From the NCBI RefSeq assembly GCF_014837105.1, contig NZ_JACSPO010000016.1, positions 1 through 41,471 of the forward strand: DNA of 41,471 nucleotides. The letters run 5' to 3'. Numbering within the stretch: the stretch's first letter is position 1; each line of letters starts with the position of its first letter. The stretch is from Oceanitalea stevensii. Lineage in GTDB: Bacteria; Actinomycetota; Actinomycetes; Actinomycetales; Actinomycetaceae. Below are positions 12,572-41,471 of the stretch, piece by piece. The notes beneath the pieces were generated by a model that ran no database searches, had not been told where the DNA came from, and was given only the letters and a program-made list of their open reading frames with translations. The translations under genes were made by a program, and so were the position numbers.

Positions 12572-13290
12572 GGCACCTCCCGCAGCACGCCGTCGGTGAT
12601 CCGCACGCGGCGCTGGGCGCGGGCGGCGACGGCGTCGTCGTGGGTGATGACGAGGAGGGTGAGGCCGTCGGCGTGCAGCTCGTCGAAGAGGTCGAGGACC
12701 TCCCCGGACGTCACGGTGTCGAGGTTGCCGGTGGGCTCGTCGGCGAGCAGCAGCCGCGGCGCGGTGACGACCGCCCGGGCGACGGCGACGCGCTGGCGCT
12801 CCCCGCCGGAGAGCGTGGTGGGGCGGAAGCCGATGCGGTGCTCGAGGCCCACCCGCTGCAGGGCGGCGTAGGCGCGGTGCAGCCGCTCCTCGCGCGGCAG
12901 GCCGGAGTACATCGTGGCGAGCAGGACGTTCTCCAGGACCGTGCGGTGCGGGAGCAGGTGGAAGGCCTGGAAGACGAAGCCGATGAGCCCGCCACGCAGC
13001 GCCGTGCGCTGCCGCTCGCCCACCGTGTGGGTGGGGATGCCGTCGAGCCAGTACTCCCCGGCCGAGGGCCGGTCGAGGAGGCCGAGGAGGTTGAGCAGCG
13101 TCGACTTGCCCGAGCCGGAAGGCCCGACGATGGAGAGGTACTCCCCGCGTGGCACCCGCAGGGAGACCGGGTGCAGCGCCGTGACGGCGGGCGGTCCGGG
13201 GAAGGAGCGGGAGACCTCACGCAGGTCGACGACGGGCGGCACCTCGCCGTCCTCGACGACCGCGTCCTCGCGGACCGGCGCGGCCGTCAC
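12568..13290 (-). CDS. ABC transporter ATP-binding protein, MacB/LolD/FtsE-like
   Basis: Walker A is GPSGSGKST, Q-loop FQAFHLL, signature LSGGERQRVAVARA, Walker B LLLADEPTGNLD and H-loop ITHD. Confidence 0.9.
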   Translation of the reverse strand: MTAAPVREDAVVEDGEVPPVVDLREVSRSFPGPPAVTALHPVSLRVPRGEYLSIVGPSGSGKSTLLNLLGLLDRPSAGEYWLDGIPTHTVGERQRTALRGGLIGFVFQAFHLLPHRTVLENVLLATMYSGLPREERLHRAYAALQRVGLEHRIGFRPTTLSGGERQRVAVARAVVTAPRLLLADEPTGNLDTVTSGEVLDLFDELHADGLTLLVITHDDAVAARAQRRVRITDGVLREVP

Positions 13291-14873
13291 CGGCCGACCA
13301 CCACGAGGTCGCCGACGGCCAGGCCCTCAGCGCTGACCTCGACGTACCCGTCGGCCGTGAGGCCGGTCTCGACGACGACGATCTCGGTGCGCTCACCGCC
13401 GCGGTCGACCTCCACACGGCTCTCCCCGCCGGCGCCGGCGGTCAGCGCGGCGACGGGCACGACGAGGACCTCCCCGCCGGTCGACTCGAGCGGGACCGTC
13501 ACGCGGACGTTGGAGCCGACGATCTCGGCGCGCTGCTCCTCGGTGATCTCGACCGGGACGAGGACGAGCTCGTGCCGGTCCCCGCCGCCACCGCCACCGC
13601 CGCCGTCCTCGCCGTCGCCCTCGCCGTCGGCGGTGGGCCGGGCGCTGGGGGTGCGCGTCTCCGTGACGGTCGCCTCGATCTCCTCCTCCCCCACGGTGAA
13701 GTAGGCCGTCGTCCCCTCGGGCACGAGGGCGGCGTCGGCGTCGGAGACGCTGGCGAGGACCTGGAGGGTCGCCCCGGAGATGGTGAGGGCCTCCCCGCTC
13801 ACCGTGTCCCCGCGGCGCACCATGACGGAGTCGACCCGGCGCGGCAGGGTGTCGACGTAGACGACCTCCGCCGCGGGCAGCGGGGTCATCGCGGTGTTGC
13901 GCGCCTCGGCGAGCGCGCGCGCGGCGTCCTCGACGGCGGTGGCGGCGGCGTCACGGGCGGAGCGCTCGGCGGAGGTGTCCGGGGCGGTGAGCGCCTCCTC
14001 GCGCTCGGCGCGGACGACCGCCAGCTCCTCCCGGGCCTGGGTGACGGCCTCGGCGCCCTCCGGCGCGGCGAGCTGGACGGCTCGCTCGGCGCGGGCCACC
14101 GCGGTGTCCAGCCGCAGCCGCTCCGAGCGGGGCAGCCCGCCGGCCGCACGGTCGACCTCTGCCTGCGCCTGCGCGTAGGCCTCCTCGGCCATCCGCAGCC
14201 CCTCACGGGCGGCGGTGAGCGCCTCGCCGGCCCCCTCCTCCGCGACGGGCGACGCGTAACCGGCCTCCTGGTAGAGGGCGTCGACGGCGGCGGAGGTGGC
14301 GGCGTCGAAGACGTCGGAGTCGCGGTTGCCGACGCCCAGGCCCAGCGAGTGCAGCGCGTCCTTGAGCTGGGTGACGTCGGGGCCCGAGCTGCCCACGCGC
14401 AGCGTGCGGTAGACGGGCAGCTCCCCGGGCAGCACGATGACCGGCCGCCCGGCGACCTCCATGATCACCTGCCCGGCCTCGACGAGGTCCCCGACCTCGG
14501 GCACCTGCCCGGTGACGATGGCGGGTCCACCCATGTCGGTGGTCTCGAGGGCCACGGAGACCGGGTCGTCGTAGAGCGCGTCACCGCGCAGGGTGAGGTC
14601 GGTGGACAGCTCGCGCTCCTCGACCGGCACGGTGATGAGCCCGGCCTCGGGCGGCGCGGCCTCCGCCGCACGCTGCGCCGGGGAGATGACGAGGTTGCTC
14701 ACCCCGATCCCGGCCGCGAGGCTCGCGACGGCGGTCGCGGCGACGACGACGATCGTCCGGTTCGCGCGGGGCGGCCGGACCCCGGGCGGCAGCTCCTCCT
14801 CGGGCTCCCCCGGCAGGTCGAGGACGGCGTCGACCGGCTCGCCGGGCTGCTGCCGGCGGCGGAGGCGGATCAC
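13287..14873 (-). CDS. Periplasmic adaptor / membrane-fusion protein (HlyD/MacA-like) with a peptidoglycan-binding domain
   Basis: An N-terminal TM anchor (IVVVAATAVASLAAGIGV) is followed by beta-barrel/lipoyl-like segments, a long coiled-coil (AEEAYAQAQAEVDRA...) and a PG_binding_1-like motif (GPDVTQLKDALHSLGLGVGNRDSDVFDAATSAAVDALYQEAGY). A poly-Gly acidic linker lies near the C-terminus. It overlaps both neighbouring genes by 4 bp. Confidence 0.8.
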   Translation of the reverse strand: MIRLRRRQQPGEPVDAVLDLPGEPEEELPPGVRPPRANRTIVVVAATAVASLAAGIGVSNLVISPAQRAAEAAPPEAGLITVPVEERELSTDLTLRGDALYDDPVSVALETTDMGGPAIVTGQVPEVGDLVEAGQVIMEVAGRPVIVLPGELPVYRTLRVGSSGPDVTQLKDALHSLGLGVGNRDSDVFDAATSAAVDALYQEAGYASPVAEEGAGEALTAAREGLRMAEEAYAQAQAEVDRAAGGLPRSERLRLDTAVARAERAVQLAAPEGAEAVTQAREELAVVRAEREEALTAPDTSAERSARDAAATAVEDAARALAEARNTAMTPLPAAEVVYVDTLPRRVDSVMVRRGDTVSGEALTISGATLQVLASVSDADAALVPEGTTAYFTVGEEEIEATVTETRTPSARPTADGEGDGEDGGGGGGGGDRHELVLVPVEITEEQRAEIVGSNVRVTVPLESTGGEVLVVPVAALTAGAGGESRVEVDRGGERTEIVVVETGLTADGYVEVSAEGLAVGDLVVVGR

Positions 14874-15931
14874 GCGTCCTTCCCGTACGCCGCGACGACG
14901 GCGTCGATGTCCGCCTGGTAGGTCTCGATGAACTTCTTCTCGAGCTCGAACTGGATCTCGAGCGACCGGGCCTCCACGTCCAGCTCCTCCTGGCAGCGGA
15001 AGTCGGCGACGGCGGCGGCGATCTCGCGCTCGCGGAGCTCGGCGAGCCCCATCTCCTCCATGACCTCCGCGACGGGGTCGCCACCGCCCGCGGCGTCCAG
15101 GGCCTCCCAGTCGAGGTTCTCCCAGTCGATCTCGGCGTCGGCCTTCTGGTAGAGCGCGTCGTACTCCTCGTAGAACTGCTCGGTCGCCGCCATGGGGGTG
15201 GTCATGCCGGTGATGCCGGCGTCAGCCATGCAGGCGGCCCACTCGTCGTTGACCTCCCGCATGCGGGGGTCCTTCTCACCGTCCTGGTAGAGCTGGTCCA
15301 TGGCCTCGAAGAGCTCGGTGAAGGCCGGGTCGGACCACGGGTCCCCCTCCTCGTAGACCTCGTGGGTGGCCAGGCCCTGGCAGCCGGCCTCCTCCCAGTC
15401 GTACTCCTCGAGGATCTCCTCGTCCTCGACCCACTCCTCCTCCTCGAAGGTCTGTGGGCCGTAGAGGGCCTCGAAGTAGGCCTCCTGCTCGGAGGCCGAC
15501 ATCCCGTTGACGTACTCGTCGTTGGGGTCGACCCACTCCTCCTCGGGCTCCGCGACCTCCTCCTCCTGCGCCGACCACGGGTCGGTGGTCACCCCGTAGC
15601 CGTACTGCTGGGCCCACTCCTCGGTGTTCCAGTCCTCGTCCTCGGTGACGATCGTGGTACCCATGTCGTACTCGACGGGCGTGTACTCGAAGCCCTCGTC
15701 CGCCATGCAGGAGGCGACGGTCTCCTCGACCTGCCGCATGCGCTCCGCCTCCTCGCGCTCCATCTCCTCCGGGTCCTGCCCGCTGCCCCAGACGACGCCG
15801 AGCGCCTCGTTGAGGGGGCTGTCCTCCCAGGTGAGCTCGGCGCTCTCGGCGGCGGGGCCGTCCGAACAGGCGGTCAGCGCCGCGAGAGCAGCGACGGAGG
15901 CAAGGACGACTCGGGCGGTGCGCATGGGCAT
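14870..15931 (-). CDS. Secreted lipoprotein, extremely acidic and Trp-rich, with an internal duplication (hypothetical)
   Basis: Signal peptide plus lipobox (LAALTAC, Cys22). About 12 Trp residues in EEW/DEW/DPW contexts and a very high Glu/Asp content. The motif x-ACMAD-xG occurs twice (VASCMADEGF and WAACMADAGI). It is the first gene of the adaptor-ATPase-permease operon, sharing a 4-bp overlap with the adaptor. Confidence 0.6.
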   Translation of the reverse strand: MPMRTARVVLASVAALAALTACSDGPAAESAELTWEDSPLNEALGVVWGSGQDPEEMEREEAERMRQVEETVASCMADEGFEYTPVEYDMGTTIVTEDEDWNTEEWAQQYGYGVTTDPWSAQEEEVAEPEEEWVDPNDEYVNGMSASEQEAYFEALYGPQTFEEEEWVEDEEILEEYDWEEAGCQGLATHEVYEEGDPWSDPAFTELFEAMDQLYQDGEKDPRMREVNDEWAACMADAGITGMTTPMAATEQFYEEYDALYQKADAEIDWENLDWEALDAAGGGDPVAEVMEEMGLAELREREIAAAVADFRCQEELDVEARSLEIQFELEKKFIETYQADIDAVVAAYGKDA

Positions 15932-16079: not shown

Positions 16080-16766
16080 GTGCCTGCAACCATCAAGGAC
16101 CCGATCGTCTGGATCGACTGCGAGATGACCGGGCTGGACCTCAGCCGGGACGCGCTCATCGAGGTCGCCGTCGTCGTCACCGACTCCGAGCTGCGGCCGG
16201 TGGACGCGGGGATCGACCTCGTCATCGCACCGCCCGCCGAGGCCGTGGAGCAGATGGGTGACGTCGTGCGCGAGATGCACACGACCTCCGGCCTCCTCGA
16301 GGAGCTCGACGCCGGGCTCACCATGGCCGACGCGCAGGAGCGGGTCCTGGCCTACGTGCGCCGCTGGGTGCCCGAGCCGCGCAAGGCCCCGCTCGCGGGC
16401 AACTCCGTGGGCACCGACCGCACCTTCCTCGAGCGCGACATGCCCGCGCTCGTCGAGCACCTGCACTACCGGATCATCGACGTGTCCTCGGTCAAGGAGC
16501 TGGCCCGGCGCTGGTACCCGCGCGCCTACTTCCACTCCCCGCAGAAGCACGGTGGCCACCGCGCGCTGGCGGACATCCTCGAGAGCATCGACGAGCTGCG
16601 CTACTACCGCGCCGTCCTGTGGCCCGAGGGGGAGGGACCGGACACGCCCACCGTCAAGGCGGCCGCCGAGGCCGTCACCTCGAGCCCGACGGCGGCGGAG
16701 GTCGAGCGCCTCGCCGCGAAGGCGGCCGCCAGGGCCGCCGGTGAGACACGCATCACCGGCTCCTGA
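16080..16766 (+). CDS. orn: Oligoribonuclease (3'-5' exoribonuclease, DEDDh family)
   Basis: GTG start at 16080. Exo I motif is WIDCEMTGLD. Text reads ...LAGNSVGTDRTFLERDMPALVEHLHYRIIDVSSVKELARRWYP. In actinobacteria orn is conserved immediately upstream of tRNA-His. Confidence 0.9.
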   Translation: MPATIKDPIVWIDCEMTGLDLSRDALIEVAVVVTDSELRPVDAGIDLVIAPPAEAVEQMGDVVREMHTTSGLLEELDAGLTMADAQERVLAYVRRWVPEPRKAPLAGNSVGTDRTFLERDMPALVEHLHYRIIDVSSVKELARRWYPRAYFHSPQKHGGHRALADILESIDELRYYRAVLWPEGEGPDTPTVKAAAEAVTSSPTAAEVERLAAKAAARAAGETRITGS

Positions 16767-16839
16767 GCCGTCCGGATTCCACACCGCTGGGGTCCAGCGG
16801 CTACAGTGGGTGACTGCTGCGCCTCCCTGAGGCGTGCAT

Positions 16840-16916
16840 GGTGGGTGTAGCTCAGCTGGTAGAGCGCCGCGTTGTGGTCGCGGATGTCGCGGGTTCAAGT
16901 CCCGTCACTCACCCGG
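16840..16916 (+). tRNA. tRNA-His (anticodon GTG), with encoded G-1
   Basis: Acceptor stem gGTGGGTG/CACTCAC with one G.T pair; D-arm AGCTCAGCTGGTAGAGC; anticodon stem-loop CCGCG-TTGTGGT-CGCGG; T-arm GCGGG-TTCAAGT-CCCGT; discriminator C; no encoded CCA. Confidence 0.85.
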
Positions 16917-16920
16917 AGAG

Positions 16921-16950
16921 CGAGGCCCGGACCGACAGGTCCGGGCCTCG
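16921..16950 (+). terminator. Perfect 12-bp stem / 6-nt loop hairpin directly after tRNA-His
   Basis: CGAGGCCCGGAC-cgacag-GTCCGGGCCTCG. GC-rich intrinsic-terminator-like structure; there is no U-tract, which is common in high-GC actinobacteria. Confidence 0.55.
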
Positions 16951-16980
16951 CCCATTTCCCGCGGCCCCGGCAGCGCCTCC

Positions 16981-17440
16981 GGCCCCCGGCTCCCGCCTCC
17001 GGGCCCCAGCTCCCGCCTCCGGGCCCCAGCTCCCGCCTCGGGGCCCCAGCTCCCGCCTCCGGGCCCCAGCTCCCGCCTCCCCCGGTCCACGCTGCTGATG
17101 CTGATCCGCGCGGCGGATATACCAGCAGCGCGGACCGGTATCAGCAGCGGGGTCCGCCCGGCATCACCAGCGGGGTCCGCCCACCTCCCCGCCCCCGGCT
17201 CCCGCCTCCGGGGCGCCGGTTCCCGCCTCCGGGCCCCAGCCTCCGGGGCGCCGGCTCGCGCCTCCGGGGCGCCGGCTCCCGCCTCCCCCGGTCCACGCTG
17301 CTGATGCTGATCCGCGCGGCGGATATATCAGCAGCGCGGACCGGTATCAGCAGCGGGGCCCGACCGATATCAGCAGCGGGGTCCGCCCGGCAGCAGCGGG
17401 TCCGGTTCAGCAGCGAGGTCCGCGGGGGCGCGGACCGTAC
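16981..17440. repeat. Composite non-coding repeat array
   Basis: Five tandem copies of a 20-mer GGGCCCCAGCTCCCGCCTCC (16981-17080) are followed by a roughly 45-bp unit containing the inverted repeat GCTGCTGAT...ATCAGCAGC around a GATATATC core (17081-17160). The whole block recurs about 206 bp later in degenerate form (17190-17370). At least eight spaced copies of (AT)CAGCAGCGGGG lie in 17121-17420. Confidence 0.7.
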
Positions 17441-17449
17441 GATCACGCG

Positions 17450-18136
17450 GTGGACGACGATCTCGGCGCGGCGCGCGCGCTCCTCAGCACCCGGCGCCTC
17501 GTGGTGCTCGACCTCGACGGTCCCCTCACCCGGCTCCTGCCCGGCCAGGAGTACCTCCGCGTGACGGCCGGCGCTCTCGAGCTCGCCCTCTCGCTCGGGC
17601 TCGAGCCCGACGACGACCTCGGCACCGAGACCGACCACGTCCAGCTCCTGCGCCTCGTCGCCGAGCGGGACCCGGACGCCGGACGCGTCGTCGAGCGGTG
17701 GTGCACCGAGCGGGAGGTCGCGGCGGCGGCCGGCGCCCTGCTCGTTCCCGGGGCCGAGGCCTTCGTCGTCACGTGCCTCGACCGGGGTGCCGCCGTCGCC
17801 GTCGTCACGAACAACGCACCGGAGGCGGCGGCCGCCGTCCTCGCCACGGGTGGGCCGGTCCTCGCAGGGCTCCCGGTGCACGGGCGGGACCCGGAGCGGC
17901 CGGAGCACCTCAAGCCCTCCCCGCACCCGCTGCTGGCCGCGGCCGAAGGCGCCGGCGTGGCTCCCGCGGACGCCGTCATGGTCGGCGACTCGCCCAGCGA
18001 CGTCCACGCGGCGACGGCGGCCGGGATGCCGTGCATCGGCCTGTCCCCTGACTCCGGGCGGCGCGCGGAGCTGCGCGCCGTGGGCGCGGTCGCGGCGGCG
18101 CCGAACCTGGCCGTTCTGCGCCCCGGCCCCGTCTAG
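17450..18136 (+). CDS. HAD-superfamily hydrolase (subfamily IA phosphatase-like)
   Basis: GTG start at 17450. Motif I is VVLDLDGPLT, motif III-like is VVTNNAPE, motif IV is VMVGDSPSDVHAATAAGMPCIG. It is followed 40 bp later by the GCHII fusion gene on the same strand. Confidence 0.75.
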   Translation: MDDDLGAARALLSTRRLVVLDLDGPLTRLLPGQEYLRVTAGALELALSLGLEPDDDLGTETDHVQLLRLVAERDPDAGRVVERWCTEREVAAAAGALLVPGAEAFVVTCLDRGAAVAVVTNNAPEAAAAVLATGGPVLAGLPVHGRDPERPEHLKPSPHPLLAAAEGAGVAPADAVMVGDSPSDVHAATAAGMPCIGLSPDSGRRAELRAVGAVAAAPNLAVLRPGPV

Positions 18137-18176
18137 AGTGGCGAGGTCGCCAGACCGGTGCAGGAAGGATCAACCG

Positions 18177-19589
18177 ATGTCCCAGCTCGAGGAGCGTGCC
18201 GAACCCCTGGCCGCGCAGCCGCCCGCCGTCGTCGAGCGTGAGGTCGAGACCGTCCTGCCCACCCGGCACGGCGCCTTCCGGATGCTCGGCTTCCGTGACG
18301 TCACCGGCACCGAGCACGTCGCCCTGGTCATGGGGCTCACCGAGCCGGACCCGCTCGACGCGCCGCTCGTGCGGGTCCACTCCGAGTGCCTCACCGGTGA
18401 CGCCTTCGGCTCCTGGCGCTGCGACTGCGGCGAGCAGCTGGACGCCGCGCTGGCGGCGGTGGCCGCCGAGGGCGAGGGCGCCGTCGTCTACGTCCGGGGG
18501 CACGAGGGCCGCGGCATCGGTCTCCTCGAGAAGCTGCGCGCCTACGCCCTGCAGGACCTCGGCGCCGACACCGTCGACGCCAACCTCGCCCTCGGGCACA
18601 GCGCCGACGCCCGCAGCTACGACCAGTCCGCCGCGATCCTCCACGACCTCGGCGTGCACCGGATCCGCCTCCTGTCCTCCAACCCCGCCAAGGAGGAGGC
18701 CCTCAGCGCCCTGGGCGTCGACGTCGTCGAGCGGGTGAGCCTCATCGTCCCCGCCCACCCCGAGAACGAGGCGTACCTCGCGACCAAGCGCGAGCGCATG
18801 CGGCACGACCGCCCGCGCGCGGACGACGCCTGGGACGCCCTCCTGGGGGGTGCGGTTCCCGCCGTGACACCGGACGACCCCGCGCACGAGCTGGTGGAGC
18901 GCTACGGCCCGCTCGTCGCCCTCGGCTCCCACGCCGTCGTCGCCCAGCTCGGCCAGAGCCTGGACGGCTTCATCGCCTCGAGGACCGGTGACGCGGAGTT
19001 CGTCACCGGTGAGGAGGACCGCGAGCACCTGCACCGGCTGCGGGCGCTCGTGGACGCCGTCGTCGTCGGGGTCGGGACGGTCACCGCCGACGACTGCCGC
19101 CTCACCGTGCGCGCCGTCCCCGGCCACCACCCCGTCCGGGTGGTCCTCGACCCGCGTGCCCGCACGCCCCTCGCCTCCCACGTGCTCACCGACGGCGCGG
19201 CGCCGACCCTGTGGCTCGTCGGCCCCGGCGCCGTCGTGCCCGACGACCTCCCCGGCCACGTCCACGTCGTCCGCCTGGACGACGACGGCCCGGCGGCCCC
19301 GGCGCGCGTGCTCGAGCTGCTGCGCGAGCGCGGCCTGGGCCGGGTGCTCGTCGAGGGCGGGGGCCGCGTCGTCTCCGCCTTCCTCGACGCCGGCGTGCTC
19401 GACCGCCTCTTCCTCACGACGGCGCCGGTCCTCATCGGCGACGGCGTCCCCGGGGTCCGCTTCACCGGCTCCGACCTCCTCGCCGACGCCGTCCGCACCC
19501 GCACGCGCCGGTTCCTCCTGGGCGAGGACGTGTGCACCGAGCTGGACCTGCGGGCGCTGCGCTCAGCCCGGGCCGAGACCGCGCCGTAG
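18177..19589 (+). CDS. ribA: Bifunctional GTP cyclohydrolase II (RibA-like) fused to a RibD C-terminal-type (DHFR-fold) reductase domain
   Basis: ATG at 18177 follows AGGAAGGA. The N-terminal domain carries the GCHII zinc motif RVHSECLTGDAFGSWRCDCGEQL and GRGIGLLEKLRAYALQDLGADTVDAN, so the ring-opening Tyr is retained. The C-terminal roughly 230 aa match RibD_C/DHFR-like reductase (LDGFIA...VVVGVGTVTADD...RVLVEGGGRVVSAFLDAGVLDRLFLTTAPVLIGDG). No deaminase domain is present. The N-terminal extension in the track ORF is a frame artefact. Confidence 0.8.
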   Translation: MSQLEERAEPLAAQPPAVVEREVETVLPTRHGAFRMLGFRDVTGTEHVALVMGLTEPDPLDAPLVRVHSECLTGDAFGSWRCDCGEQLDAALAAVAAEGEGAVVYVRGHEGRGIGLLEKLRAYALQDLGADTVDANLALGHSADARSYDQSAAILHDLGVHRIRLLSSNPAKEEALSALGVDVVERVSLIVPAHPENEAYLATKRERMRHDRPRADDAWDALLGGAVPAVTPDDPAHELVERYGPLVALGSHAVVAQLGQSLDGFIASRTGDAEFVTGEEDREHLHRLRALVDAVVVGVGTVTADDCRLTVRAVPGHHPVRVVLDPRARTPLASHVLTDGAAPTLWLVGPGAVVPDDLPGHVHVVRLDDDGPAAPARVLELLRERGLGRVLVEGGGRVVSAFLDAGVLDRLFLTTAPVLIGDGVPGVRFTGSDLLADAVRTRTRRFLLGEDVCTELDLRALRSARAETAP

Positions 19590-20615
19590 GTCCGCCGCGG
19601 TGTCGGCCCACGTGCGCAGGTGCTGCCGGCGCGCGAGGGCGGCCGCGCGCCACGCCGCGCGCTGCTCCGTGTCGGTCAGCCACCGGCGCAGCACCCGCGC
19701 CCACGCGCCGGGGTCCGCGGGCGGCACGGCGGTGCCGGCCGCGTCGTCGGGCAGCGGCTCGGGCCGGCCGGTGAGGGCCTCGACGGCGCCGGTGCCCGCG
19801 GACACGACCGCGGGCACGCCGTGGGCGAGCGCCTCGGTGACGACGAGCCCGTAGGTCTCCACGAGCGAGGGGACGAGCAGCAGGTCGGTGCGCTGCCACA
19901 GCCCCTCGAGGGCGTCCCCGGTGACGACGCCGGGAAGCGACACCCGGTCCGCCAGCCCCACCGTGTCGAGCGCGCGGAGCAGGTGCTCGGCGACGGCGGG
20001 CTGGGCGGTGCCCGGACCCGCGAAGGTCGCCTGCCACGGCAGGTCGCGCACGGCGTCGAGCGCCGGGACGAGCCCGGCGTGGTTCTTCACCCGGGTGAGG
20101 GCGCCGAGCGCGAGGAGGTGCGGCGGGCGGCTACCTGCCGCGACCGCGGCGGGCTCGGCCCCGGGCTTGGCCACGAGGACGCCGGTCCGCCCGTAGCGGC
20201 GGGTGAGGTCCGCGGCCGCCCAGCGGCTCGTCGTGACGACGGCGGACGCGGCGTGGACGGTACGGGACTCCAGCGCGGCGAGCCGGTCCGCGTCCGCGCG
20301 CGGTAGTCCGAGCTCGGCCGGCAGCGGGAGGTGGACGAGGAGGACCACGCGCACGCCGGCGGCGACGGCGGCACTCACCTCCCCGGGGCAGGCACTGCCC
20401 ACGAGGCCGTCGAGCACGACGGTGCCGGACGTGCCCAGCGCCCCTCGCAGCGCCTCCCGCTCGGCCGGCCCGGGCCGCGGCCACGACCCCGGCAGGGCGA
20501 GCACCTCCACCGGCCCGTGCGCGGCCTGCCAGGCGCGGGCCAGGCACGCGTCGTAGACGTCGCCCCCGCTCGGCCCGTCCCCGCGCGCGGGGACGACGAA
20601 CCGCAGCGCCGGCAC
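19563..20615 (-). CDS. Glycosyltransferase, GT-B fold (GT4-like, group 1)
   Basis: 350 aa with the C-terminal EX7E motif ETYGLVVTEALAHGVPAV typical of retaining GT4 enzymes. Its 3' end overlaps the GCHII-fusion gene convergently by 27 bp. Confidence 0.8.
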   Translation of the reverse strand: MPALRFVVPARGDGPSGGDVYDACLARAWQAAHGPVEVLALPGSWPRPGPAEREALRGALGTSGTVVLDGLVGSACPGEVSAAVAAGVRVVLLVHLPLPAELGLPRADADRLAALESRTVHAASAVVTTSRWAAADLTRRYGRTGVLVAKPGAEPAAVAAGSRPPHLLALGALTRVKNHAGLVPALDAVRDLPWQATFAGPGTAQPAVAEHLLRALDTVGLADRVSLPGVVTGDALEGLWQRTDLLLVPSLVETYGLVVTEALAHGVPAVVSAGTGAVEALTGRPEPLPDDAAGTAVPPADPGAWARVLRRWLTDTEQRAAWRAAALARRQHLRTWADTAADLRRGLGPG

Positions 20616-20618
20616 CGG

Positions 20619-21005
20619 CTAGCTCCCGGGGAGCTCGAGTCGGTAGGTCGCCCAGGCGTCGGGGTGCTCGCGCAGCGTGACCTCCAGCGCCGTGTACGGG
20701 GTCATGTCCAGCCCCTCGGCGAGACGGTGGGCCACGTGCCGGGCCACGACCTCGGTGGTGGTGACGAGCCCCGCGAAGTCCTCGAGGTCGTCGAGGTTTC
20801 GGTAGCGCAGCGCGCCGGTGACCTCACCGAGCCGCTCGGTCGCCGCGCCGATGTCGATGACGACGCCGTGCTCGTCGAGCTCGGGGCGGAACCACGTCGC
20901 CTCGACGACGTAGGTGACGCCGTGCAGCCCCTGGGCGGGGCCGAAGAACGGGTCGGGCAGGCTGTGGGCGACCATCATGTGGTCGCGGACCGTCACGCTG
21001 AACAC
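20619..21005 (-). CDS. 6-pyruvoyl-tetrahydropterin synthase (PTPS/QueD, COG0720) fold protein, divergent subfamily
   Basis: 128 aa. MFSVTVRDHMMVAHSLP aligns to the QueD/PTPS N-terminus (first zinc-ligand His is present). The position equivalent to the CxxxHGH motif reads AQGLHGV, so the catalytic Cys and one zinc His are replaced. It is tightly packed between the GT and the dehydrogenase (gaps of 3 bp and 0 bp). Confidence 0.7.
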   Translation of the reverse strand: MFSVTVRDHMMVAHSLPDPFFGPAQGLHGVTYVVEATWFRPELDEHGVVIDIGAATERLGEVTGALRYRNLDDLEDFAGLVTTTEVVARHVAHRLAEGLDMTPYTALEVTLREHPDAWATYRLELPGS

Positions 21006-21980
21006 TCAGCTCTCCTCGGGGTAGCGGATGACGTGGCACAGGGCCGGGAGCCGGCCGGAGGCGATGTCCGCCATGGTCCCGGGCAGCTCGGCGAAGGCGC
21101 TGGCGCCGGTGAGGAGGGCGTCGAAGCGCGGGTCGCGCAGCGCGTCCAGGGCCACTCCCAGCCGGTCCGCGGTGGTGCGGCGGGCGCGGCGGGCGGCGCT
21201 GACGGCACCGACCTGGCTGGCGCGGACGGTGAGCCGACGGGCGTGGAAGGCCTCCCCCAGCGGGACGCGCGGCGCGTCGGTGCCGTACCACGACAGCTCG
21301 ACGACCTCCGCCTCCTCCCCGGCCAGCCGCAGGGCGGTGGCGAGGCCGGCCTCGCTCGCCGAGCAGTGCAGGACGACGTCGCAGTCCCCGGCGGCCTCCT
21401 CCGGGGTGACGAGCTCCAGCCCGAGGCGCGCGGCGAGCTCCCCACGGCGCGGGTCGACGTCCACCACCTGGAGCCGCCCGAGCGGGAAGCCGCCGAGCAG
21501 GGCGGCGACGGACGCGCCGATCATCCCCATGCCGACGACGGCGACCCTGTCGCCCAGCCGTGGGGCGGCGTCCCACAGGGCGTTGACGGCGGTCTCGACG
21601 GCGCCGGCGAGCAGGGCGCGCTCGGTGGGCACGTCGTCGGGCACGGGGACGACGGCGGTGGCGGGCACGACGTACCGCGTCTGGTGGGGGTACAGGCAGA
21701 ACACCCGCCGGCCGACCAGCTCCTCGGGGCCGGCGTCGACGACGCCGACGGAGAGGTAGCCGTACTTCACCGGGCCGGGCAGGTCGCCCTCCTGAAACGG
21801 GGCGCGCATGAGCGGGCGGACGGCCTCGGGCACCGCGTGGCGGTGGACGAGCGTCTCGGTGCCCCGGCTGATCGCCGAGGCCAGGGTGCGGACGAGCACC
21901 TCGCCGGGTCCGGGAGCGTCGAGGGACGTCTGCCGGAGCTGTCCCTCCTCGGGACCGACCGTCCAGTACGCCTCGACCAT
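21006..21980 (-). CDS. Zn-dependent medium-chain dehydrogenase/reductase (threonine/sorbitol-dehydrogenase-like)
   Basis: True start is an internal ATG at about 21978-21980 (MVEAYWTVGPEEGQL...). The GroES-like N-domain reads GEVLVRTLASAISRGTE. A Rossmann GxGxxG-like motif is VAVVGMGMIGASVAALL. The upstream part of the track ORF is an artefact. Confidence 0.8.
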   Translation of the reverse strand: MVEAYWTVGPEEGQLRQTSLDAPGPGEVLVRTLASAISRGTETLVHRHAVPEAVRPLMRAPFQEGDLPGPVKYGYLSVGVVDAGPEELVGRRVFCLYPHQTRYVVPATAVVPVPDDVPTERALLAGAVETAVNALWDAAPRLGDRVAVVGMGMIGASVAALLGGFPLGRLQVVDVDPRRGELAARLGLELVTPEEAAGDCDVVLHCSASEAGLATALRLAGEEAEVVELSWYGTDAPRVPLGEAFHARRLTVRASQVGAVSAARRARRTTADRLGVALDALRDPRFDALLTGASAFAELPGTMADIASGRLPALCHVIRYPEES

Positions 21981-22116
21981 CACGGGCCCATCCTGCCCGC
22001 CGGGCACGTGTCGACGCGAACGGGCACGCGCGCGCCGACGGGCGTCCCAGCACTTATGCTCACGCTGACCCAGGGGCGCGGGGAACCCGTGCCCGCGTGA
22101 ACGGAAGTGAGATCTC

Positions 22117-23067
22117 ATGGCCGGTGGCCTTGCTGCACTGCTCGACGACATCGCCGCCCTGGCCAAGATCGCCGCGGCCTCGGTCGACGACATCGGTGCC
22201 GCAGCGGGCCGCGCCAGCGCCAAGGCCGTGGGCGTCGTCATCGACGACACCGCGGTGACGCCGCGCTACGTCCACGGCTTCACCTCCAACCGCGAGCTGC
22301 CGATGATCCGGAAGATCGCGACCGGCTCCCTGCGCAACAAGCTCGTCTTCATCCTCCCGGCGATCCTGCTGCTCAGCCAGTTCCTCCCGTGGCTGCTCAC
22401 CCCGATCCTCATGGTCGGTGGTCTCTACCTCAGTTACGAGGGCGCGGAGAAGCTCTACGAGTACGTCACCGGGCACCACAAGGAGAAGACGGCGGCCCCC
22501 GCCGCCGCGAAGGGCGAGGACCACGAGAAGACGATGGTGAGCGGCGCGATCCGCACCGACTTCATCCTCTCCGCCGAGATCATGGTCATCGCGCTCAACG
22601 AGGTCGCCGACGAGCCGCTCCTCAACCGGGCGATCATCCTCGTCGTCGTGGCCCTGGGGATCACGGCGCTCGTCTACGGCGTCGTCGCGCTCATCGTTAA
22701 GATGGACGACATCGGCCTCAGCCTCGCGAAGCGGGACTCCGCCGGCTCCCAGAAGGTCGGCCGCCTCCTCGTCAAGGGGATGCCGAAGGTGCTCGCGGTG
22801 CTCTCCGTCGTCGGCGTCGTGGCGATGCTCTGGGTCGGTGGGCACATCCTGCTCGTCGGGGTCGACGACCTCGGCTGGCACGCGCCCTACGAGCTCGTCC
22901 ACCACCTCGAGGAGGCCGTGGCCGGTGGGCTCGGAGCGCTGAGCGGCTTCGTCACCTGGCTCGTCAACACGCTGTCCTCGGCGGTCGTCGGGCTCGTCGT
23001 GGGCGCCGTCGTCGTCGTCATCATGCACCTGGTCCCGCGCCGGAAGAAGGACGCCGCCGCCCACTGA
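22117..23067 (+). CDS. DUF808-family inner-membrane protein (YedI-like)
   Basis: The N-terminus MAGGLAALLDDIAALAKIAAASVDD...NRELPMIRKIATGSLRNKLVFILP is characteristic of the YedI/DUF808 family. There are several TM helices. Confidence 0.8.
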   Translation: MAGGLAALLDDIAALAKIAAASVDDIGAAAGRASAKAVGVVIDDTAVTPRYVHGFTSNRELPMIRKIATGSLRNKLVFILPAILLLSQFLPWLLTPILMVGGLYLSYEGAEKLYEYVTGHHKEKTAAPAAAKGEDHEKTMVSGAIRTDFILSAEIMVIALNEVADEPLLNRAIILVVVALGITALVYGVVALIVKMDDIGLSLAKRDSAGSQKVGRLLVKGMPKVLAVLSVVGVVAMLWVGGHILLVGVDDLGWHAPYELVHHLEEAVAGGLGALSGFVTWLVNTLSSAVVGLVVGAVVVVIMHLVPRRKKDAAAH

Positions 23068-27121: not shown

Positions 27122-27700
27122 TCAGCGGCGCCGGTCGTAGGTGAGCACGACGTTCCCGCCGGCGAAGGTCCGCACGTCCGTGAGCTCGACCTCGCTCGGG
27201 GCGAAGCCGGCTCCCTCGAGCATCGGGTGCCCGGCGCCGGCGACCACGGGGTAGACCTTGACGATGAACCGGTCGATCTCCGCCAGCAGCGCCCCGGCCA
27301 GCCGCGCACCGCCCGCGAGGTAGATGTCGAGCGGGGAGTCCTCGGCCTTGAGCCGGCGCACGAGCGCGACCGGGTCGTCACGGACGATGGTGACGTCGGG
27401 GTCCAGCTCCTCCTGCGTCGTCGAGACGACGTACTGGCGCAGGTGCGCGTACGGGCTGGTGACGCCCTCCCGCAGTCCCGGCTCGTAGGTCCGCCTGCCC
27501 ATGACGACGGTGTCGAAGCGCGTGTTCGGGCGGTCGGTGAGGCCGAGGTGCGCACGGCCGTGGCTGGGGATCGTGTCCGGGTACTCCTCCAGCATCCACG
27601 CGGTGTAGTCCTCCGGCTGCGGGTAGAAGTCGAACTCGTCGCTCGGGCCGGAGATCCGGCCGTCGAGCGAGACGGCGATGTAGTAGGTGAGGCGGCGCAC
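27122..27700 (-). CDS. Dihydrofolate-reductase-family (RibD C-terminal domain-like) reductase
   Basis: GTG start at 27698-27700, preceded by GGGGGAG. LTYYIAVSLDGRISGP...VVMGRRTYE...IYLAGGARLAGALL matches the RibD_C/YwjB-like DHFR family. The upstream part of the track ORF is an artefact. Confidence 0.75.
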   Translation of the reverse strand: MRRLTYYIAVSLDGRISGPSDEFDFYPQPEDYTAWMLEEYPDTIPSHGRAHLGLTDRPNTRFDTVVMGRRTYEPGLREGVTSPYAHLRQYVVSTTQEELDPDVTIVRDDPVALVRRLKAEDSPLDIYLAGGARLAGALLAEIDRFIVKVYPVVAGAGHPMLEGAGFAPSEVELTDVRTFAGGNVVLTYDRRR

Positions 27701-27828
27701 GGAGTCTCCCCCTGTCGGTGACGTCGGTTCGCGGCCATCCTGGCGGTGACGGCCCACCGCGCGCCAGGGAATACGCGAGGACGATGACGGCGGGCAGCCC
27801 CGCCGTCGTCGTCCTCGCGCCTCCCGGG

Positions 27829-28053
27829 CTACTTCTTCTGGACGGTGATCGACCACTCCGCGTCACCGATGCGGCGGTAGTCCGTCACCGGGTAGCCCTC
27901 CTGCGCGGCCCAGCGCGGGATGGCGTCGGTGGCCTGGGTGCAGTCGAAGTGGATGGTGAGGTGGTCGCCCTCGGGCAGGGCCGCGATGGCGTCCTTGGCC
28001 TCGACGAGCGGGAAGGGGCAGACCTGTCCGGAGGTCTGAAGGGTGATGGGCAC
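27829..28053 (-). CDS. TusA-like sulfurtransferase (YeeD/SirA family)
   Basis: 74 aa with a GTG start after GAAAGGA. It has the CPxP active-site motif (QVCPFPL). It lies immediately downstream of YeeE/YedE, as in tsuA-tsuB pairs. Confidence 0.7.
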   Translation of the reverse strand: MPITLQTSGQVCPFPLVEAKDAIAALPEGDHLTIHFDCTQATDAIPRWAAQEGYPVTDYRRIGDAEWSITVQKK

Positions 28054-41431: not shown

Positions 41432-41471
41432 GTGGGGGGGGGGGGGGGGGGCCCCCCCCCCCCCGGGGGGG
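41432..41471. other. Homopolymer G/C tail (probable sequencing or assembly artefact at contig end)
   Basis: GGGGGGGGGGGGGGGGGGGGGCCCCCCCCCCCCCGGGGGGG at the extreme 3' end of the window. It is not biological-looking. Confidence 0.6.

Follow-up and report, generated by a model that had tools for sequence, protein, structure and literature searches.

A hypervariable palindromic and tandem-repeat tract between tRNA-His and a HAD hydrolase operon in Actinomycetota

The spacer between a tRNA-His gene and a HAD-family hydrolase gene holds a composite repeat array of ~480 bp (16959-17436) that looks like unstable, lineage-specific repeat DNA, a new example of a hypervariable intergenic palindromic and tandem repeat and not a new kind of genetic element. 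The tract differs in length between close strains and species, its sequence diverges about as fast as third codon positions, and no other copy was present in any of the DNA sampled. We consider it about an even call that a palindromic insertion was gained a single time between a terminator and a promoter and was then expanded and collapsed in the manner of a VNTR, which would make the tract a largely neutral spacer with at most side effects on the promoter. The window, that is, the whole stretch of 41,471 nt that was analysed, is ordinary core chromosome of a member of Actinomycetota with ~75% GC, in which orn, tRNA-His, a terminator hairpin, the repeat tract, the HAD hydrolase and a GTP-cyclohydrolase-II/RibD_C fusion follow one another in this order.

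A preliminary description had placed a repeat array with a period of ~206 bp and a recurring hairpin at 16981-17440, directly behind the orn-tRNA-His terminator hairpin. The array proved to be real, and both its period and its position were borne out: TRF found a 206-bp period in 2.0 copies at 16982-17388 (89% matches, score 652), and the repeats set in at 16959, right after the hairpin. The borders had to be moved to 16959-17436, and the recurring hairpin turned out to be a 74-bp palindrome. Each of the two ~206-bp blocks is composed of about five C-rich 20/21-bp units, one such palindrome and further direct 17-mers 17-23 bp apart (Table 1), and TRF also picked up 23-bp units, in 2-2.6 copies, at 17135-17182 and 17339-17397. 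With up to three mismatches allowed, the 17-mer consensus ATCAGCAGCGGGGTCCG occurs nine times in the array and once elsewhere in the 41 kb, against an expectation of 0.38 per window from shuffled sequences, none of which (0/100) reached ten matches; the 20-mer has six copies, all within the array, compared with 0.15 expected. The direct 17-mers are spaced by 19 and 23 bp in block 1 and by 19, 23, 20 and 17 bp in block 2, and the motif copies, like the C-rich units, recur about every 20-23 bp, close to two turns of the helix. Each palindrome is built from one 17-19-bp motif, present twice inverted and twice direct, and has 37-nt arms that are 78-81% complementary and meet without a spacer. The two blocks differ from each other by 7-11%, and their C-rich parts are differently structured. 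GC lies between 0.73 and 0.81 across the array, with no AT-rich stretch. On the minus strand of the first C-rich tract, 16983-17083 (GGGAG CTGGGG CCCGGAGGC GGG...) is the longest of 15 G-quadruplex-prone clusters that a regex scan found in the 41 kb, ~370-470 bp upstream of the HAD start.

Table 1. Features of the repeat tract and its flanks (window coordinates)
Feature	Position	Strand	Description and evidence
orn (RNase_T)	16080-16766		Pfam
tRNA-His (GTG)	16841-16914	+	ARAGORN; Rfam tRNA, 64 bits; upstream neighbour of the tract
Terminator-type hairpin 3' of the tRNA	16920-16951	+	14-bp perfect arms, 4-nt loop, weak TTT tail
C-rich tandem tract 1	16959-17082	+	Lead-in plus 20-bp unit CTCCCGCCTCCGGGCCCCAG x5.3; TRF (16974-17080, 95% matches)
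Palindrome 1	17083-17156	no strand	37-nt arms without spacer; DNA fold -32.4 kcal/mol, z = -5.5
Extra direct 17-mer ATCACCAGCGGGGTCCG	17163-17179	+	23 bp past the preceding copy
C-rich tandem tract 2	17188-17286	+	Degenerate 21-bp units x4.7; TRF (17195-17286, 74% matches)
Palindrome 2	17289-17362	no strand	93% identical to palindrome 1; centre GATATATC; DNA fold -31.1 kcal/mol, z = -5.3
Three further direct motif copies	17369-17422	+	At 17369, shortened near 17389, and at 17406
Promoter-proximal perfect palindrome GGTCCGCG-GGGG-CGCGGACC	17417-17436	no strand	8-bp arms; ends 1 nt before the -10 box
TACGAT, inferred -10 hexamer (TANNNT)	17438-17443	+	Alignment, invariant T524 A525 A528 T529; TANNNT rule (PMC3898074)
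HAD-family hydrolase	17450-18136	+	Pfam, homologues; GTG start at 17450; first gene of the HAD / GTP cyclohydrolase II-RibD_C operon

The tract is non-coding. Open reading frames drawn across it have a flat codon-position GC (0.76/0.82/0.76, as against 0.72/0.48/0.96 for orn), lack a Pfam match and run over the tRNA. They are therefore not genes, in agreement with the earlier dismissal of them. The terminator hairpin in front of the tract has a calculated RNA fold of -38.6 kcal/mol and is kept in the five relatives that retain tRNA-His, with a sequence common to the four closest in the alignment. Comparison with Pfam of 30 ORFs of the window with gene-like GC3 revealed no integrase, transposase or Rep protein, and the called genes of the relatives likewise included no integrase or transposase; the two sets together account for all high-GC3 ORFs of the window. 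No RAYT (IS200/IS605-like) transposase gene was found among the window ORFs scanned. The 3'-terminal 26-mer of tRNA-His is single-copy in the 41 kb, as expected from the first reading, which had noted neither an integrase nor a duplicated tRNA 3' end. An attachment site of an integrative element at the tRNA was therefore rejected on both counts, for the window ORFs and the relatives' called genes.

To compare the spacer between genomes, relatives' loci were retrieved from seven other assemblies through their HAD homologues, the closest of which (G. satyanarayanai) is 88% identical, and the spacers were read and aligned. The tract is absent in CP154848 (L123), G. wutianyii (L127) and QKLZ01 (L128). 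It measures ~60 bp in one G. satyanarayanai locus (L121/L122), ~105 bp in a locus represented by Logan and ENA assemblies (L125/L126), where it consists of one palindrome and one 17-mer, and ~190 bp in another G. satyanarayanai locus (L124). The window included, seven Georgenia loci thus give lengths of 0, ~60, ~105, ~190 and ~480 bp for head-to-tail copies in a non-coding spacer. The four carriers are mutual closest relatives over 6.5 kb of flanking DNA, so that a single gain suffices. The same neighbours flank filled and empty sites, and three Georgenia relatives have this operon and its -10 box but no tract, which indicates that the tract is dispensable. L121 looks like a deletion derivative, because it retains the left border (window 16962-16970) and the segment corresponding to window 17350-17386 (34/37 identical), and L124 contains short fragments that align to block 2.

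Divergence of the array from the window amounts to 8% in L121, 11% in L125 and 20% in L124, measured on just 37-117 aligned bases per genome; in the same order of genomes, the values for third codon positions in orn and HAD are 11-13%, 10-18% and 13-23%. Since the two sets of values are similar, the tract appears to evolve at about the neutral rate, with no purifying selection visible in an alignment of this size. Its variation from 0 to 480 bp between Georgenia genomes, together with this near-neutral divergence, argues against a conserved, dedicated function. The centre of the palindrome reads GATATATC in the window and GACATGTC in L125, a paired T:A to C:G change that keeps the symmetry and could be due to selection or to hairpin-templated repair.

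The dominant signal of actinobacterial promoters is a TANNNT -10 box with its centre 7-12 bp ahead of the start site; a -35 consensus does not exist, and leaderless mRNAs are common in this group (PMC3898074). The repeat tract ends 1 nt before a TACGAT hexamer, which itself lies 6 nt upstream of the GTG of the HAD gene. In every one of the seven Georgenia loci, whatever lies upstream, we found TA(C/G)(G/C)AT and, after a gap of 6 nt (7 in L127), GTG or ATG, which is the textbook pattern for leaderless mRNAs in actinobacteria; L128 keeps the box despite a different upstream gene, and in L123 and L128 an upstream terminator hairpin ends only 10-17 nt before it. Given this conserved TANNNT at a nearly constant spacing and the promoter rule cited above, we infer that the HAD mRNA is leaderless, starting at ~17450, and that TACGAT is its -10 box. 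The array would then be upstream promoter DNA and probably not part of the HAD transcript, in keeping with the initial view of it as the promoter region of the HAD/GCHII operon. The last 17-mer (17406-17422) overlaps the -35 position, and the perfect palindrome next to the -10 box is present in shorter versions in L125 and L121. In two relatives the automatically called HAD start lies upstream of the conserved one, by 33 nt in L125 (10001-10033, 239 aa), where the call runs into the repeat tract, and by >100 nt in L127 (10001-10113, 262 aa); both are probable start-codon misannotations.

The HAD gene stands at the head of a conserved cluster (window 17450-22250; ~10001-14600 in L121 and L123-L128), which comprises the HAD hydrolase, the GTP cyclohydrolase II-RibD_C fusion and, on the minus strand, a GT4 glycosyltransferase, a PTPS/QueD-like protein and a 2-hydroxyacid-dehydrogenase-like protein. 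Its presence in 7/7 Georgenia loci points to an uncharacterised pathway of a flavin/pterin-like or modified-pyrimidine type. RibD_C occurs a second time, as a stand-alone gene at 27122-27856. On the other side of the tract, the minus strand of window 13287-15931 carries two conserved genes of unassigned function, encoding proteins of 528 aa (weak peptidoglycan-binding match) and 353 aa (no Pfam match), upstream of a MacB/FtsX-type ABC transporter pair and divergent from orn; both are kept in L121, L123, L125 and L127 and missing in L124.

Searches for further copies covered several collections. Neither the 17-mer nor the 20-mer revealed a second copy of the array in the 41-kb window, and in ~190 kb of Georgenia loci there was no other copy and the motif stood at no other promoter sampled. 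No match was obtained by blastn in PLSDB plasmids or INPHARED phages, and a degenerate 17-mer gave single chance-like matches only in IMG/VR. Six-frame translations of the palindrome block returned nothing at E <= 1 from 5.8 billion predicted proteins, a weak negative, as short intergenic copies are rarely called genes. A scan of genome contigs with the loose pattern CAGCAGCGNGGNCCGN{4,8}CAGCAGCG gave at least 120 single chance matches in unrelated phyla, none of them array-like among the matches listed. A specific 24-mer pattern had one match in JGI metagenomes (L129; Ga0079224_100230408, 2552-2670), which comes from a near-identical strain and represents its orthologous HAD locus. With a sample for dispersal of ~1-3% of a genome, a high-copy REP family is unlikely and a low-copy MITE family is possible. 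A literature search on Georgenia repeats yielded nothing relevant.

The metagenome contig also bears on the assembly. It is independent of the window and equals ~17330-17449 base for base, leaving no difference in the right-hand 120 bp of the array. It terminates inside palindrome 2, which shows that the repeat disrupts assembly from short reads. Because this contig agrees exactly and the blocks differ by 7-11%, a simple duplication in assembly is unlikely. The window itself ends in a G18-C13-G7 run (41434-41471; GGTGGGGGGGGGGGGGGGGGGGCCCCCCCCCCCCCGGGGGGG), which looks like a homopolymer sequencing or assembly artefact at the contig end, or an extreme G:C hairpin.

Several other explanations were weighed. 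The tract may be an operator- or iteron-like array, in which a DNA-binding protein would cooperatively bind the phased 17-mers and palindromes and activate or repress the leaderless HAD/GCHII promoter. Motif copies 17-23 bp apart, first head-to-head and then direct, with the last one at -35 and a perfect palindrome abutting the -10 box, look as protein-binding sites do; the core ATCAGCAGCG(A/G)(G/T)GTCC recurs in L124 and L125, and in L121 with one further mismatch, and the compensatory change at the palindrome centre points the same way. We nevertheless regard this reading as unlikely, given that three Georgenia relatives have the same operon and promoter without the tract, that copy number runs from 2 to about 12, that the array shows no conservation above the neutral rate (8-20% vs 10-23% at third codon positions), that no regulator gene travels with it between filled and empty sites with the same neighbours, and that the motif recurs at no other sampled promoter. 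DnaA boxes (of which there is only GTCCAC, in two copies), parS, dif and known actinobacterial regulator boxes were dropped as well, as they do not seem to resemble the motifs. If the 17-mers did bind a protein, they would form an unusually fast-evolving operator array. Direct copies of a 17-22-bp motif phased at ~22 bp, as the spacing above provides, are a trait of iterons; replication-type iterons were discarded for want of an adjacent rep gene, an AT-rich unwinding element and any plasmid similarity. We think it improbable that the tract is a putative iteron-like switch, in which some protein, or a G-quadruplex/i-motif in the C-rich 20-mers, would read the number of phased repeats, so that expansion and contraction set the expression of HAD/GCHII-RibD_C; an actinobacterium would then tune an uncharacterised flavin/pterin-like pathway by a heritable rheostat driven by a VNTR. 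An action at the RNA level seems very improbable to us, whether read-through from orn-tRNA-His produced hairpins that served to back up the terminator or to protect 3' ends, or the tract encoded a small RNA. The hairpins would be very stable (RNA fold -54 kcal/mol for the plus strand), the U tail of the tRNA terminator is weak, and folding of the full tract is stronger than that of shuffled sequences (z = -4.7). However, the minus strand folds about equally (-51 kcal/mol), with no G-U asymmetry, so nothing points to a strand-specific transcript, and the tract is absent in three relatives and is located between a strong terminator hairpin and the HAD -10 box. Rfam at gathering thresholds recovered the tRNA only and nothing in the tract, and a relaxed E-value search gave only sub-threshold miRNA-hairpin look-alikes (19-27 bits vs 70-197 required). 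A sigma-70 and terminator consensus scan of 16700-17600 found no promoter-like site in the tract; it also missed the tRNA terminator and the TANNNT box and is hence uninformative for a GC-rich host. The structured ncRNA proposed at the outset, or a riboswitch, found no support, given the Rfam result, the equal folding of both strands and the position upstream of the conserved -10 box.

The tract could also belong to a dispersed, genus-specific REP/MITE-like family, with the 105-bp palindrome as a non-autonomous element whose transposase lies elsewhere and whose present copy was later expanded in place. The founding unit is an imperfect palindrome with imperfect terminal inverted repeats (GTCCNCGCTGC... 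/ ...GCGCGGAC), the ends in L125 (GTCCCCGCTGCG / CGGAGCGCGGAC) match at ~10/12 positions, and the element adjoins a terminator hairpin, a common target of REP/MITE-like elements; the break of the L129 contig within the array would fit as well. Relative to the empty site of L123, the founding unit sits between CCG and CCG (CCCCCG/TACGAT in L123 vs CCCCCG/GTCC...GGACCG/TACGAT in L125, the slash marking the junction), but a 3-nt repeat of this kind is trivial and not significant at 75% GC. The sole metagenome match is orthologous, though the remainder of that genome should be in the sample too, and neither a second copy nor a parent IS with matching ends was found in the DNA sampled (~1-3% of a genome), nor a transposase in the window, so that we rate a dispersed family as an unlikely explanation. 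An assembly artefact, the spurious expansion of a shorter repeat, is extremely improbable. Tandem repeats are prone to misassembly, an independent contig ends inside this one, and the run at the window end looks like a sequencing artefact; against this stand the sequence and structural differences between the blocks, the exact agreement of the right-hand 120 bp with an independent assembly and the homologous shorter versions in relatives.

We therefore return to a single gain followed by VNTR-like change, in a tract for which the present data show no dedicated function. A ~105-bp palindromic element with head-to-head 17-19-bp motifs would have been inserted a single time, in an ancestor common to the Georgenia satyanarayanai group, into the short stretch that separates the tRNA-His terminator from the HAD -10 box. 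The C-rich 20-mers and the 17-mers may then have multiplied, and the entire 206-bp block doubled, through slippage or unequal recombination, and deletions between short repeats may have collapsed the tract in sister lineages. The symmetry of the palindromes was probably kept by hairpin-templated repair and not by selection. As a side effect, the terminator would have been pushed 480 bp from the promoter and the tract would supply the -35 sequence, which could tune HAD/GCHII expression. The tract is a possible strain-typing marker for the G. satyanarayanai group, and the natural series of 0, 60, 105, 190 and 480 bp bears on how upstream repeat DNA affects a leaderless actinobacterial promoter. 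It is also a warning to annotators, as gene calling in one relative drew the HAD start back into the repeat, and the window has spurious ORFs across the tract.

Parts of the tract resemble known systems. The 17-bp iterons of RK2 and the 17-bp half-sites of AraC, phased at 21 bp, are matched by a 17-bp motif directly repeated at ~19-23 bp with inverted copies beside a promoter; unlike those arrays, the tract has no rep gene, AT-rich unwinding region or identified partner protein, and it occupies a core chromosomal site, is dispensable in Georgenia relatives and diverges at a near-neutral rate. REP/BIME, ERIC, BOX and Correia-type elements and MITEs occur in tens to hundreds of dispersed copies, REPs together with a RAYT transposase, whereas no second copy of the tract was met in the DNA sampled and it shows no similarity to plasmid or phage records. 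It shares with them imperfect palindromes of ~75-105 bp that are capable of forming hairpins, a modular build like that of BOX elements, with their A-B-C modules and variable number of B units, and a location behind a terminator and in front of the following promoter, from which elements of these kinds can affect expression. Mycobacterial MIRUs form a family at about 40 loci with a defined 46-100-bp unit, whereas our tract is known at one locus only (in the 41-kb window and ~190 kb of relatives' loci) and is composite, combining 20-mers, 17-mers at 17-23-bp spacing and a 206-bp super-repeat with long palindromes. Like MIRU-VNTR loci, it consists of head-to-tail repeats of tens of bp, has no coding capacity, lies in a spacer between co-directional genes of a high-GC actinobacterial host, and varies in copy number between close strains.
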